A DNA stretch of 17,097 nucleotides from a virus. Position numbers and translations under genes: made by a program. This document shows positions 5,198-13,141 of the stretch, piece after piece. Position 1 is the stretch's first letter. Every line of letters starts with the position of its first letter. Location of the stretch: the UHGV virus genome UHGV-1592266; one strand, 5' to 3'. The notes beneath the pieces are model-generated. The model made no database searches. It saw only the letters and a list, made by a program, of their open reading frames with translations, and had not been told where the DNA came from.

Positions 5198-6166
5198 TTA
5201 GTAGGTTATTTTTGTTGCGAATACTTCGCCTTTTACGATGGCTGTTATGATATTTTTAGCAACATCTTCTGATGCACCAACCTTGATAAGGTCAGCAAGT
5301 ATTTTGTTATTTACTTCTTTCCGGTGAGCTTTATCCTTTGCTCTACGCTCTTCTTCGTCCTTGATTCTTTTTTCTTCTGCTATTCTGGCTTGCTCTTTTG
5401 CTTCAGCCTCGCGCCGGATTCGTTCAGCCTCCTCCTGTGCTTTTCGGCGTTCTGCTTCAATTGCCGCCTGCTTTTCTCTTTCAGCTCGTTCTGCTGCCTC
5501 TTTTGCTTCGCGCTGTGCTCGTTGCTCGGCTTCAATGCGTTCACGCTCTGCACGTTCCGCTGCGGCCTTAGCTTCTGCTTCTCGCCTTGCTGCTGCTTCA
5601 ATTTCGGCTTTTGCCTTTGCTTCGGCTTCTGCTCTGGCTTTCTCTTCAGCTTCTCTTTTTAAGCGTTCTTCATGCTCTCGCTTTTCCTGCTCCGCTTTGA
5701 GTCTTGCCTCTTCTCTTTGGCGGTCAAATTCGCGATCCATCAAAATAGCTATTTCATGGTCAGACTCAATTTGCTTTGCGAGAGCTTCAGCTGCTGCCTT
5801 AGCTTCTTCTTCGGCTTTAATCCGCGCCTGTTCTTCCTCATAATCAGTAAGAGGCTGGCGCGCCTTGGCTTTCAGCTCATCAAGGCGATCACGCACTGTC
5901 TTGCGGTTGGCATCAATTAGCTTTGGAATTTCCTTCAGTTCAGCAACAAGGTCTTTGCCAAGACCATCGAGATATGTTTTCGTCTGCGCAACTTTATACG
6001 CCAGAGAAGCGATCTCCTTTCTGCCCTTTGCCGTTGTGATATCAGGCACAAAGGACATAACTTCACGTTCAACCTTTTGAAGGATTTCTTCAATCTGGTC
6101 GGCAGACTGAAATACAGTCATTGCATTTGCTTTTTCAATAACAACTAAATCTGTTACTTCACTCAT
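5198..6166 (-). CDS. coiled-coil protein with A/E/K/R-rich repeats (323 aa)
   Basis: ATG at 6166 with GGAGG RBS. The track's longer form has no RBS. The central ~180 aa are a low-complexity EAKAAAE/RAEAEAKAKAE coil. Confidence 0.55.
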   Translation of the reverse strand: MSEVTDLVVIEKANAMTVFQSADQIEEILQKVEREVMSFVPDITTAKGRKEIASLAYKVAQTKTYLDGLGKDLVAELKEIPKLIDANRKTVRDRLDELKAKARQPLTDYEEEQARIKAEEEAKAAAEALAKQIESDHEIAILMDREFDRQREEARLKAEQEKREHEERLKREAEEKARAEAEAKAKAEIEAAARREAEAKAAAERAERERIEAEQRAQREAKEAAERAEREKQAAIEAERRKAQEEAERIRREAEAKEQARIAEEKRIKDEEERRAKDKAHRKEVNNKILADLIKVGASEDVAKNIITAIVKGEVFATKITY

Positions 6167-6177
6167 ATATCCTCCGT

Positions 6178-6207
6178 CAAAAAAATTGCCCTCACACTGG
6201 AGGGCAA
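6178..6207 (-). terminator. rho-independent terminator hairpin directly upstream of the 323-aa gene
   Basis: Minus strand reads TTGCCCTCCAGTGTGAGGGCAA followed by TTTTTTT and then the GGAGG RBS. Confidence 0.5.
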
Positions 6208-6298
6208 AGAAGATTTCCAATAATCAGAACAAGTCGGCTCCTGTTTAGTTACGAGCGACATTGCTCACATAGCAGACTCGCAAATCTGCTATAGGTGC

Positions 6299-8986: not shown

Positions 8987-10339
<1,353 letters not shown>

Positions 10340-10458: not shown

Positions 10459-10737
10459 ATGCAACTTACAAGTACTCGCAAGAAAGCGAATGCAATTACA
10501 AGCAACATCCTGAATCGAATTGCTGTACGTGGTCAGCGAAAGGTTGCCGACGCGTTAGGGATTAATGAATCGCAAATTTCGCGATGGAAAGATAGCTTCA
10601 TCCCCAAAATGGGAATGCTTCTGGCTGTTCTTGAATGGGGTGTTGAAGACGAGGAGTTGGCGGAACTGGCTAAGAAAGTAGCCAGAATGCTGACAAAAGA
10701 AAAAGCCCCGAAGAACGGCGAATTCTTCGAGGCCTGA
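10459..10737 (+). CDS. cII: CII transcriptional activator (P22 c1-like, 92 aa)
   Basis: MQLTSTRKKANAITSNILNRIAVRGQRKVADALGINESQISRWK...MLLAVLEWGV matches the CII family. AGGAAA RBS. Confidence 0.85.
   Translation: MQLTSTRKKANAITSNILNRIAVRGQRKVADALGINESQISRWKDSFIPKMGMLLAVLEWGVEDEELAELAKKVARMLTKEKAPKNGEFFEA
10492..10505 (-). promoter_or_regulatory. PRE: CII-binding site of PRE (TTGC-N6-TTGC) inside the cII 5' end
   Basis: Minus strand reads TTGCTTGTAATTGC. Confidence 0.6.
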
Positions 10738-10771
10738 TGTAGAAAGACTGGATCAATCCACAGGAGTAATT

Positions 10772-11416
10772 ATGACATACGAAAATGACAAATTCCAGGT
10801 TCTGAAGAGCATGAAGGTGCCAGATGATTTTAAATCAAATGGCTTTGTTTATGTGCTTTCTAATGAGTGCATGCCAGGAATTTATAAGATTGGGATGACT
10901 AAGCATTCACCAGAAGTTAGGGCTAAAGAAATTTCAGCCTCTACTGGCGTTCCTAAGCCATTTAAGGTGATAGCAGCCTTTCATTCAAATAATCCCGCAT
11001 CAGATGAAAAACTCATGCATAAAGCCTTTGCAAAAGAGAGGCTTAGTGATAATCGAGAGTTTTTCAAGCTTGAAGATAATGAGCTTTCTGAATCTCTAAA
11101 TGAAATAAGGGCGCTGGTTGGCCCTGAAAGAAATGGCGAGACGGCAGAATACGCAATTTACGACTCATTCATTTCTTTTCGCCATGAAAATGAGCTTGAT
11201 CTTAATGAGGAGCTTATAGAGCAAGGTCTGGGTAGTGTAGTTGGTCATCTTCCTGCGGTGAAAAATTTCCTTATTCGCGCCGGAATTGATTACGCGAAGC
11301 AACTGATAAGCAAATATAACTCATCGATAGTTATTAATACAGATGGCAGTGTGGTGATGGTTAAGTCTCTTGAAGCCCAATGCTTTGATGCGGAGGTTGG
11401 AAATGAGCCTGGCTGA
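10772..11416 (+). CDS. T5orf172 (GIY-YIG-like) domain protein (214 aa); moron inserted between cII and O
   Basis: GFVYVLSNECMPGIYKIGMTKHSPEVRAKE...PFKVIAAF...REFF fits the T5orf172/GIY-YIG pattern. GC ~40% is lower than the flanking genes. Its 3' end overlaps the O start. Confidence 0.6.
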   Translation: MTYENDKFQVLKSMKVPDDFKSNGFVYVLSNECMPGIYKIGMTKHSPEVRAKEISASTGVPKPFKVIAAFHSNNPASDEKLMHKAFAKERLSDNREFFKLEDNELSESLNEIRALVGPERNGETAEYAIYDSFISFRHENELDLNEELIEQGLGSVVGHLPAVKNFLIRAGIDYAKQLISKYNSSIVINTDGSVVMVKSLEAQCFDAEVGNEPG

Positions 11417-12245
11417 AGTATTTTACCTGTCGAAGAGTGAACCTGTTGAACAGGAGCGAAGAGTGGCTGATATCGATGATGGTTACACCAGATTCGCTAA
11501 CGAGCTGCTGGAAGCTATCGCAAGTGCTGATTTAACCGCTCGCCAGTTGAAAGTTATGCTGGCCTACGTCCGGAAAACATATGGATTCAATAAGAAAACA
11601 GATCGAATAGCCGATGAGCAAATTGCTCAGTTAACAGGACTGTCAAGGCAGAATGTTAACAAGGCTAAAAAAGAACTGATTTCAATGAATTGCCTGTTTA
11701 TGGATGGAAATCAAATCGGTGTAAACAGTGAGGTATCTGCGTGGCAATTCAGCAAGTGTCTCCAAGTTAGCAACTTTGTCTCGAAGTTAGAGACAAAAAA
11801 TGTCTCCAAATTAGAGACACTCAATGTCTCGAAGTTAGAGACACACAAAAGACATTCTTTAAAGACAAAAGAAAATATTAATAAACCCCCTATATCCCCC
11901 AAAAAAGTTTCTCAGAAGTTCGACCCGCTAGAAACAGAGTTGCCTGATTGGTTATCAGCAGAAACATGGTTGTCGTGGGTTACCTATCGCAAGGAGATAG
12001 GTAAGTCGATCAAGTCTAAGCAAAGTGTCACTCAGGCTATCAACGTTCTAAGCAGAAGTCTGGAGAAGGGATATACACCTGAAGAAATTATAAACCAGAG
12101 CATCGCCAGTGGTTGGCAGGGGATTTTTGAACCCAAGACTCCAAAGGGGAAATCTCAACCGAGGCCGCAGCAGCGAGCTATGCAGGAAAACTTTGCCGCC
12201 AAAGATTACGGGCAAACTGAAATGCCTTCATGGGCGCAGGAGTGA
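11403..12245 (+). CDS. O: replication initiator O (lambda O family)
   Basis: ATG at 11403 with GGAGG RBS. RVADIDDGYTRFANELLEAIASADLTARQLKVMLAYVRKTYG parallels lambda O NVADLDDGYARLSNMLLEA... The iterons are internal to the gene. Confidence 0.85.
   Translation: MSLAEVFYLSKSEPVEQERRVADIDDGYTRFANELLEAIASADLTARQLKVMLAYVRKTYGFNKKTDRIADEQIAQLTGLSRQNVNKAKKELISMNCLFMDGNQIGVNSEVSAWQFSKCLQVSNFVSKLETKNVSKLETLNVSKLETHKRHSLKTKENINKPPISPKKVSQKFDPLETELPDWLSAETWLSWVTYRKEIGKSIKSKQSVTQAINVLSRSLEKGYTPEEIINQSIASGWQGIFEPKTPKGKSQPRPQQRAMQENFAAKDYGQTEMPSWAQE
11757..11885 (+). repeat. ori: replication origin: four ~19-bp iterons (11757, 11777, 11801, 11825) plus an AT-rich region
   Basis: tgtctcgaagttagagaca and tgtctccaaattagagaca are palindromic 19-mers at 20-24 bp spacing; the first copy is degenerate. 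They are followed by cacaaaagacattctttaaagacaaaagaaaatattaataaa. They translate as the VSKLET repeats in O. Confidence 0.8.
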
Positions 12246-12247
12246 AT

Positions 12248-13141
12248 ATGAATACGACAAATGGTTACAATCTGGCACTGCAAAGGCAACTTGTAGACTC
12301 AAAAATCAATGACATTTCTGATCTGAAACAGAAACTTGAGTTTAGCAAAATTGGATCAGCATCAGATGGAATGTCAGTTACCAGCACAGTGGAAGAGTGC
12401 GAGAAACACGGTAAATATACTTCCTATGAGAAATATCTGACCATCTCAGGAAAAAGAATTACTTCAAGTAAATCTGAGTGCCCACAGTGCCTTGAGGAGA
12501 AAATTCGTAAGAAAGAGATTGAACGTGAGCAGGCAGAACAAAGAGCAAGACAATCAAAAATTGAATATTTGTTGAATTCTCTCAATATTCCAGAGAGGTT
12601 CAAAAATTGCACTCTTCAGAATTATGAGCCTGTTAACGATGATGCAAAGCGAGTTCTTAAGGTATGCCAGGCATATGCCAGTAAGTGGCCTGAACGCCTT
12701 CAGAAAGGTGGCGGACTGGTCATGTGTGGTAAGCCTGGAACTGGAAAGAACCACCTTGCACTGGCTATCGCTAGGCACGCCATTATCGAGCATCAAAGCT
12801 CTGTGATATTTACCACTGCGTTGAAAATTGCCAGAGAGTACAAATCAACATGGTCTAAGGCCGCAACCAGAACTGAAGAAGAAGTCATTAGGCAATTTAC
12901 GCATCCTGACTTGTTAATAATCGATGAGGTTGGCGTGCAGTTCGGCAGTGATGCTGAAAAGCTAATCATGTTCGAAATTATCAACACCAGATATGAATAC
13001 ATGAAGCCAACAATCCTGATTAGTAATCAGAGCAAAGATGAACTTTCGGCATTCATTGGTGAGCGTGTTATTGACAGGATGAATGATGGCGGCGGATGCA
13101 CCCTTGCGTTTACATGGGATAGTTACAGGAGCAGATCGTGA
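12248..13141 (+). CDS. DnaC/IstB-like AAA+ helicase loader (replaces lambda P)
   Basis: Walker A GKPGTGKNHLALAIA and Walker B LLIIDEVG. ATG at 12248 with GGAG RBS directly after the O stop. The N-terminal ~90 aa carry a C-x2-H...C-P-Q-C cluster. Confidence 0.85.
   Translation: MNTTNGYNLALQRQLVDSKINDISDLKQKLEFSKIGSASDGMSVTSTVEECEKHGKYTSYEKYLTISGKRITSSKSECPQCLEEKIRKKEIEREQAEQRARQSKIEYLLNSLNIPERFKNCTLQNYEPVNDDAKRVLKVCQAYASKWPERLQKGGGLVMCGKPGTGKNHLALAIARHAIIEHQSSVIFTTALKIAREYKSTWSKAATRTEEEVIRQFTHPDLLIIDEVGVQFGSDAEKLIMFEIINTRYEYMKPTILISNQSKDELSAFIGERVIDRMNDGGGCTLAFTWDSYRSRS

Follow-up and report, generated by a model that had tools for sequence, protein, structure and literature searches.

The nuclease gene at the cII-O junction

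What is a nuclease gene doing between cII and the replication genes of a lambdoid phage, and how does it come to be there? This question is raised by UHGV virus genome UHGV-1592266, from which a stretch of 17,097 nucleotides (nt), referred to below as the window, was analyzed. An open reading frame (ORF) of 214 amino acids in the window, here called ORF214, lies between cII and an O-like replication initiator gene. An earlier note, made from the DNA sequence alone, had described this ORF as preceded by an AGGAG and overlapping O by 14 nt, and both the sequence and Pfam bear the description out. We are highly confident that ORF214 belongs to the delayed-early rightward operon of a P22-like/lambdoid phage and that its presence there is optional. 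Judged from its sequence, the N-terminal half of the protein is apparently a T5orf172-class GIY-YIG endonuclease domain that is catalytically intact. As to its role, our tentative reading, to which we would give somewhat less than an even chance, is that ORF214 is a selfish or competitive nuclease that is expressed early and acts in a homing-like manner.

The nuclease domain

Residues 24-112 of ORF214 match two Pfam families, in each case over nearly the whole model: T5orf172 (PF10544; 1.1e-14, 55.2 bits with a cut-off of 20) and MUG113 (PF13455; 1.2e-15, 58.3 bits with a cut-off of 22.3). The assignment to T5orf172, which the earlier note had made from GIY-YIG-like motifs, thus holds up in a search with hidden Markov models (HMMs), with both scores well over the cut-offs. 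The motifs are F25-V-Y27-V-L, G36-I-Y38-K-I-G41-M-T, R50, E53 and R95-E96-F-F. Thirteen residues of the domain, Y27, Y38, K39, G41, M42, T43, R50, E53, H83, R95, E96, F97 and F98, are invariant in 37 homologues with identities down to 33%, and from this conservation the nuclease domain is judged to be under purifying selection. By analogy with other GIY-YIG enzymes, among them SNIPE with its E414, we take Y27, Y38, G41 and R50 to have catalytic roles and E96 to bind the metal.

The domain has the GIY-YIG alpha/beta fold. Structural matches were obtained to Slx1, HIGLE and I-TevI, and the best of these are Slx1 and HIGLE. The PHROG families that match ORF214 have no known function, and a search of NCBIfam gave no meaningful match to the protein.

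A private C-terminal domain

The second half of the protein, residues 113-214, consists of a short helix, a strand, a helix, a 23-residue helix, a beta hairpin and a final helix in a confidently predicted fold. It is conserved across the family, for example in the stretches VGPERN, NFLIRAGI and SSIVIN.DGSV.LVKS. The earlier note had left these ~110 residues unassigned, and they remain so after searches of Pfam (described below), a sequence profile search of the PDB and a comparison with a viral predicted-structure library, none of which gave a match to the domain. An HMM of the domain found 15 matches among 1.84 billion representative proteins, nearly all of them with the same two-domain layout; some, of 63-98 amino acids, may be gene fragments, and one (P0061) is a low-complexity eukaryotic artefact. 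We conclude with high confidence that the C-terminal half is a folded acidic domain private to the ORF214 family.

The idea that this domain is a copy of the origin-binding domain of O, as in Odn, was rejected; hhalign gave a probability of 1.8% when the profile of the domain was compared with the O protein of the window. ORF214 has no transmembrane segment (the maximum 19-residue hydropathy is 0.89) and no DUF4041 match in Pfam. Its C-terminal end is ...FDAEVGNEPG, and neither an SSB-like tail nor a GIYGPxxP motif, both of which are described below for more distant relatives, is present.

An optional gene with sharp edges

Escherichia phage CurroJimenez (Bas106, PQ850599), a P22-like Lederbergvirus of the BASEL collection, is 99.7% identical to the window over the 1.3 kb round ORF214 and has a copy of the gene itself (99.5% identity) that is annotated as hypothetical. 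Bas106 covers 59% of the whole window at 97.5% identity, and therefore the window represents a mosaic relative and not Bas106 itself. In phage N7 (MH717096), cII is directly followed by O and ORF214 is absent.

The earlier note had suggested that a comparison of cII-O junctions in related prophages would reveal a presence/absence polymorphism, and this is what the comparison found. ORF214 is present in 19 of 5426 complete E. coli genomes with identities of 98.6-99.5%, and all 19 copies are annotated "GIY-YIG nuclease family protein" and are followed by a gene annotated "replication protein". The O allele of the window, aligned over at least 80% of its length, occurs in 46 of the 5426 genomes; therefore, 27 genomes have the replication module without ORF214. 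Four of these 27 were inspected, and in each of them cII is followed by a gap of 32 nt and then by O. The gene is therefore optional and dispensable. One E. coli genome, ET776 (NZ_CP100909), has two ORF214 matches; the second is probably partial and may be an incomplete copy or else part of a second cassette-bearing prophage.

The edges of the polymorphism are sharp. From the 3' end of cII to the ribosome binding site (RBS) and the ATGACA that follows it, there is hardly any difference between the window, N7 and Sf6; past this point the similarity ends. The similarity between the window and N7 restarts at codon 16-17 of O, GAACAGGAGC. In place of positions 10778-11447, alleles without the gene contain 42 nt from the 5' end of a lambda-type O. 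The empty junction of the N7 or lambda type reads ATGACAAATACAGC...TTTGCC, and the first 48 nt of O are identical in lambda and N7. The two versions of the O N-terminus, MSLAEVFYLSKSEPV and MTNTAKILNFGRGNFA, nevertheless retain what looks like distant homology. An alignment of O from five alleles with ORF214 and five without it places all of the fixed differences between the two classes in columns 1-48, where the divergence is 57%. The remaining ~800 nt of O have no fixed differences, and divergence between the classes (0-2.7%) equals that within them. To the left of ORF214, the immunity regions differ between carriers.

A family that keeps to one slot

Among 5.8 billion protein clusters searched, ~28 clusters of 211-229 amino acids are 56-98% identical to ORF214, and a more distant group of 225-238 amino acids is 38-46% identical. 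Those members that have a name in their source are called "GIY-YIG nuclease family protein". At all loci examined, the homologues, with identities down to ~35%, are located in the same slot as ORF214; these loci are from Klebsiella aerogenes, Pantoea ananatis, Enterobacter soli, one plus four metagenome contigs and seven Enterobacterales genomes. The order of the genes is constant: a cII-like or YdaT-like regulator, the T5orf172 gene, the replication initiator and the loader. The homologue mostly overlaps or abuts the start of the initiator gene, with a range from -59 nt (a gap) to an overlap of +71 nt. The initiators themselves are of the Phage_rep_O family, of a type that starts with MARSRNIKPGFF and has no Pfam match, DnaD/HTH_36-like, or like the Sf6 gene 43 initiator.

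At one locus the nuclease is 69% identical while the initiator and the loader are only 35% and 30% identical, and at two other loci the nucleases are 60-64% identical next to initiators that are not detectably related. The nuclease gene is thus more conserved than either flank and is, therefore, a module of its own. The position of the family is ancient and fixed, and ORF214 is not a recent one-off insertion; the family is fixed in the slot across the Enterobacterales. Distant T5orf172 proteins in which the C-terminal part is different or absent are also encoded at this position in Proteus phage Brookers, Salmonella phage S107 and Burkholderia phage KL4, and the KL4 protein is a bare nuclease domain of 132 amino acids.

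The slot between cII and O is also known to be variable and is not, as a rule, empty. It is empty in lambda and N7. It contains gp42 in Sf6 and gp43 in HK446, both of which are annotated as HK97 gp53-like and overlap the start of the initiator gene by 14 nt, and HkaW in HK620 and orf63 in S107, both of which are DUF2740 proteins. The S107 slot thus has a DUF2740 gene plus the T5orf172 gene.

Some relatives have other C-terminal parts. A distant subfamily of 225-245 amino acids (L011, L013 and L032-L036; P0029, P0031, P0035, P0037, P0039, P0040, P0057 and P0062) has a C-terminal extension with the motif GIYGPxxP, and its proteins often end in DFDDAPF, DFDDNPF, SDDSDIPF, SDDTDIPF, DEPIPF, PVEF or PLEF. 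The SSB C-terminal tip is a docking site for many replication and repair proteins, and several of these endings closely resemble the tip of the E. coli protein, DFDDDIPF. Outside the Enterobacterales, the T5orf172 domain closest to that of ORF214 is found in Vibrio phage K303 and ~70 related oyster-associated Vibrio phages. In the K303-type protein, of 319 amino acids, an N-terminal T5orf172 domain is followed by a part with weak matches to ParA/CbiA-type P-loop proteins, which indicates a different fusion partner. A 202-amino-acid metagenome protein (P0032), in which the last ~65 residues of ORF214 are fused in frame to O, probably results from a sequencing frameshift in the 14-nt overlap, is not taken to be a real fusion, and was not used.

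The boundary block and the oop region

The left edge of the cassette is exactly at the ATGACA that lies inside a conserved block between cII and ORF214. The block, a classical boundary of mosaicism, is annotated 'bsq5; boundary sequence' in Sf6 and is common to lambda. It includes the AGGAG at 10762-10766, 5 nt ahead of the ORF214 ATG, and this common RBS takes up the 34-nt gap between the end of cII (10737) and ORF214. The earlier note had credited ORF214 with an RBS of its own; in fact, O of lambda and of N7 starts from this very RBS and ATGACA, as does gp42 of Sf6.

On the minus strand, the 3' end of cII contains a strong terminator-like hairpin of 14 pairs (10735..10703) that is followed by a T run. 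By analogy with lambda, we infer that it corresponds to the terminator of the oop antisense RNA; the oop unit of the window was placed with the help of an alignment to the lambda cII-O region and of the positions of oop and its promoter, Po, in lambda. A search of Rfam gave no oop match in the cII-ORF214 region. In lambda the -10 of Po overlaps the O start codon. In the window, ATTATGACA gives TGTCATAAT on the minus strand, and this can be read as an extended -10 of Po that overlaps the start codon of ORF214. The conserved block would thus end exactly at the end of the extended -10, and the cassette would replace the -35 region alone, which is TGGAAT in the window compared to TTGAGT in lambda and N7. 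This would account for the Met-Thr start that ORF214 has in common with lambda O.

As a separate matter, oop expression could differ between cassette-bearing and cassette-free phages because the -35 region is replaced. Both the gene and the changed Po -35 are found in Bas106. According to the BASEL paper, this phage makes clear plaques and does not behave as temperate on E. coli K-12 despite intact-looking lysogeny genes, for which the authors suggest a missing attB. ORF214 is compatible with lysogeny because the 19 E. coli prophages carry the gene.

Expression, composition and neighboring genes

The features of the region are collected in Table 1. The PR-like site upstream of cro is the sole strong promoter-like site upstream of ORF214 on the plus strand. 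Because the number of promoter-like sites around ORF214 is not above that in shuffled sequence, the label PR rests on the position of the site before cro (HTH_3). Scans with consensus patterns, which could miss a weak promoter, found no promoter-like or terminator-like site flanking ORF214 on the plus strand. Since ORF214 has no promoter or terminator of its own, is separated from cII by 34 nt and overlaps O, it should be expressed as part of a delayed-early transcript from PR together with cII and O. Early expression from PR, as proposed in the earlier note, is the most sensible reading of the region. The protein should, as far as can be predicted from this arrangement, be made during infection or induction only and the gene should be silent in a repressed prophage. 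The ORF214 stop lies 14 nt past the O start codon at 11403, and we predict with high confidence that translation passes from ORF214 to O by way of this overlap (translational coupling). The term moron, which the earlier note used, implies an autonomous unit of promoter, gene and terminator that is expressed from the prophage; it does not fit a gene that is spliced into the PR operon on an existing O RBS and start and is coupled to O.

Table 1. Features of the cII-O region in the window (positions in the 17,097-nt stretch)
Feature	Position	Strand	Remarks
PR-like promoter, TTGACA-17-GAAAAT	10068..10096	+	Upstream of cro
cII	10459..10737	+	92 amino acids from this ATG; Pfam Phage_CII 1.8e-42, PHROG 191
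oop antisense RNA (putative)	10695..10761	-	Terminator hairpin 10735..10703 plus T run; 5' end placed by analogy with lambda
Conserved boundary block (bsq5 in Sf6)	10738..10777	+	Contains AGGAG (10762-10766) and ATGACA
ORF214	10772..11416	+	214 amino acids, ATG-initiated; predicted T5orf172-class GIY-YIG nuclease with orphan C-terminal domain
Allele-variable stretch	10778..11447	+	ORF214 codon 3 to stop, new O RBS and start, 15 O codons
ORF214 N-terminal nuclease domain	10841..11107	+	Residues 24-112
ORF214 C-terminal domain	11108..11413	+	Residues 113-214; net charge -8, isoelectric point (pI) 4.6
GGAGG RBS for O	11392..11396	+	Within ORF214 3' end, 6 nt 5' of the O ATG; read from the sequence
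O-like replication initiator	11403..12245	+	280 amino acids; Pfam Phage_rep_O 3.4e-36, PHROG 678
Three 24-nt tandem repeats, TGTCTCGAAGTTAGAGACACACAA	11777..11848		Inside O; Tandem Repeats Finder score 109; probable iterons
DnaC/IstB-like helicase loader	12230..13141	+	Pfam IstB_IS21 1.3e-18, PHROG 50

The GC content of ORF214 is 40.6% and the GC content at its third codon positions (GC3) is 35.8%, compared to 42-47% and 40-47%, respectively, in eight neighboring genes; among 645-nt windows of the 17-kb stretch, ORF214 is at the 5th percentile for GC. The lower GC reported in the earlier note is therefore real, but it is modest; at only 2-6 points under the neighboring genes, it does not amount to a strong compositional anomaly, which was rejected.

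The three tandem repeats inside O are probably origin iterons, as judged from the lambda ori and from the origins annotated (rep_origin) in Sf6 and HK620. They encode a repeated peptide, VSKLET, and start ~360 nt past the ORF214 stop.

Comparison with known systems

Phage T5orf172 genes have been treated as homing endonuclease genes that are located at genetic-exchange boundaries adjoining essential genes, and 87% of the T5orf172 homing endonucleases have Zn-finger DNA-binding repeats (Barth, Dunham & Seed 2023, PMC10448857). ORF214 is similar to these ICP1, T5-like and lytic-phage homing genes in that it has the same PF10544 domain, is free-standing, adjoins an essential (replication) gene, lies exactly at an exchange boundary and is present or absent within near-identical flanks. 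It differs from them in that an acidic orphan C-terminal domain stands in place of the CapR, DUF723 and DUF4397 Zn-finger repeats, in that it occurs in a temperate lambdoid phage, with one T5orf172 gene seen in the 17-kb window, and in that it is embedded in an operon and apparently coupled in translation. Furthermore, its family keeps a single slot, whereas the homing genes have spread to many sites. The I-TevI and T4 Seg-type GIY-YIG homing enzymes are basic, and their C-terminal half contains a Zn finger, a minor-groove helix and a helix-turn-helix; in contrast, the C-terminal half of ORF214 has a net charge of -8 and none of these motifs.

The T5orf172 domain is an active nuclease in SNIPE/PD-lambda-1, where the change E414A abolishes both defence and toxicity and other domains do the targeting (Saxton et al. 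2026, PMC13190303), and it is also active in an ICP1 nuclease (PMC10448857). Like SNIPE, ORF214 has a T5orf172-type nuclease domain that must owe its specificity to something other than itself. Unlike SNIPE, it has neither a transmembrane anchor nor DUF4041, it is 214 instead of ~490 amino acids long, and it lies in a phage early lytic operon and not in a host defence locus (PMC13190303).

Within the slot, ORF214 resembles HkaW, orf63, Sf6 gp42 and HK446 gp43 in that it stands directly past the bsq5/oop block with the same RBS and ATGAC start and a similar overlap with the initiator gene. These four are, however, unrelated proteins of 48-53 amino acids without a nuclease domain.

The type of enzyme is already known, and the NCBI pipeline names the protein a GIY-YIG nuclease. 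Literature searches that combined GIY-YIG with lambdoid and cII found nothing. Three aspects appear to be undescribed in the literature searched: the combination of a T5orf172 domain with an acidic orphan domain in the absence of Zn fingers, the strict residence of a family in the lambdoid slot between cII and the initiator, and the clean cassette-present and cassette-absent alleles.

What the nuclease may do

We propose that in a mixed infection, or in a cell with a resident lambdoid prophage, ORF214 would cut cassette-free DNA at or near the seam between the immunity and replication genes. Its own genome would be spared, since the cassette stands there in place of the first 42 nt of lambda-type O. 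On being repaired by recombination with the cassette-bearing genome, the rival would receive a copy of the cassette and, in many cases, of the linked replication module as well. Since the protein has no basic DNA-binding domain, the choice of the target would be made through the orphan C-terminal domain or a partner protein. A homing-like action of this kind is suggested by the Pfam matches, the invariant GIY-YIG residues, the fold and the T5orf172 precedents; it is also consistent with the polymorphism and its sharp edges, the location at bsq5, the independence of the gene from its flanks, its lower GC and the lack of a promoter or terminator of its own.

Several observations weigh considerably against this proposal. 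The homing-endonuclease idea, which the earlier note had included, is weakened by the protein being acidic and without a recognizable DNA-binding domain: the pI of the whole protein is 5.1, each of the two domains has a net negative charge throughout the family, and ORF214 has only two cysteines and lacks the Zn-finger DNA-binding domains typical of T5orf172 homing endonucleases. A Pfam search with residues 113-214 of 20 family members at E <= 1 found nothing consistent. No co-conversion gradient extends past the first 48 nt of O in the comparison of five alleles with five. All 37 homologues are full length, and degenerate copies were not seen. The adjoining initiators belong to at least four unrelated families, and a homing enzyme with sequence specificity would need repeated changes of its target; because the slot is kept beside unrelated flanks, after cII or YdaT, one recognition sequence cannot explain the distribution. 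Finally, ordinary shuffling of lambdoid modules yields the same pattern without homing, and cleavage by ORF214 is itself a prediction.

The main alternative, possible although rather unlikely, is that the enzyme is instead a nuclease associated with replication or recombination. Partner contacts of its acidic C-terminal domain, and in distant relatives an SSB-like tail, would direct it to forks or branched intermediates, where it would nick or cut DNA structures, for example, in feeding recombination-dependent or rolling-circle replication or in sabotaging host fork-repair factors. This would agree with the location of the homologues immediately upstream of the initiator at every examined locus, whatever the initiator family, with the predicted translational coupling to the initiator, with an acidic protein that lacks a DNA-binding domain, with best structural matches to the structure-specific Slx1 and HIGLE, and with the SSB-tip-like tails of the distant subfamily (GIYGP...DFDDAPF, SDDSDIPF, DEPIPF). 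However, the gene is dispensable, being missing from N7 and from 27 of the 46 E. coli genomes that have the module, and the window protein has no SSB-like tail. A specific partnership with O is unlikely since the adjoining initiators are unrelated, and position alone is a weak argument because a conserved gene order is the rule for lambdoid accessory genes. We consider it improbable that ORF214 serves as a counter-defence or anti-parasite nuclease like ICP1 Odn, made early against a satellite (PICI or P4-like), a plasmid or a host defence locus. A T5orf172 nuclease that acts against the PLE satellite provides a precedent (PMC10448857), early expression is predicted, and the variable, lineage-restricted C-terminal domain could serve as a targeting module; however, this domain resembles neither the DNA-binding domain of O, as noted above for the hhalign comparison (1.8%), nor any known DNA-binding family, and no target is known.

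The earlier note had also offered a defence factor as a candidate. That ORF214 protects the lysogen by superinfection exclusion, along the lines of PD-lambda-1/SNIPE or the candidate system PDC-S57, is very unlikely in our opinion, even though PADLOC matches residues 21-113 to both PDC-S57 (4.1e-29) and PD-Lambda-1 (3.5e-12). These matches are confined to the nuclease domain and involve only positions 3-94 of 212 in the first model and 355-450 of 496 in the second; the transmembrane segment and DUF4041, both needed for SNIPE function, are lacking; and a gene that has no promoter of its own and stands behind PR and tR1 should be silent in a lysogen. The match to PDC-S57 is strong within the part of the model that it covers; ORF214 sits in a phage early operon and not in a defence island, and the literature search found no mention of PDC-S57. 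There is similarly little to recommend a passenger without a present nuclease role, and we give hardly any weight to this reading, whether the gene is taken to be a remnant in decay or to have been domesticated, like PLE CapR, as a regulator that binds DNA or protein. Such a passenger could well be dispensable and rare (19 of 5426 genomes), and domesticated relatives of T5orf172 homing endonucleases do exist (PMC10448857). However, in 37 of 37 homologues the protein is full length with unchanged catalytic motif residues, and these residues together with the conserved C-terminal domain indicate purifying selection on an active enzyme.

Other genes in the window

Two ORFs on the minus strand, away from the cII-O junction, deserve mention. 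The first, of 134 amino acids (8990-9391), lies directly downstream of the cI-like repressor gene with a slight overlap, in the position of Sf6 gene 38 and HK446_039; the start of its product resembles a signal peptide or lipoprotein signal, and Pfam gave no match. Should this ORF be transcribed together with the repressor gene, it would be a better candidate for a lysogen-expressed gene than ORF214. The second, of 340 amino acids (5198-6220), has a long central region that is rich in Glu, Ala, Lys and Arg and looks like a coiled coil. It causes a marked AT-skew anomaly (to -0.74) and has short GCTTCT-type repeats at 5571-5698.

Implications

Lambdoid phages are the textbook example of mosaic genomes, and the cause of recombination at given module boundaries is debated. 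Here a nuclease gene is located exactly on the boundary between the immunity and replication genes, it is optional on a near-identical background, and its domain family has recently been linked to exchange boundaries in lytic phages. A bolder extension of the proposed homing-like action, which we regard as a long shot, is that the ORF214 family makes the immunity/replication seam (bsq5 and oop/Po) a recombination hotspot, as a partner-guided nuclease that cuts the start of the replication module of rivals. If this were true, the family would drive the exchange of whole replication modules along with its own spread, and its acidic domain, and in distant relatives the SSB-tip-like tail, would dock on the replisome or on SSB-interacting proteins instead of on a DNA sequence.

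The question can be tested directly because Bas106 is in the public BASEL collection and N7 provides a natural empty junction. If the gene is neutral cargo instead, the finding is a better annotation of a hypothetical protein and nothing else. Otherwise, the family would add to the known T5orf172 nucleases an architecture that lacks a DNA-binding domain and in which targeting would have to be accomplished by protein partners.

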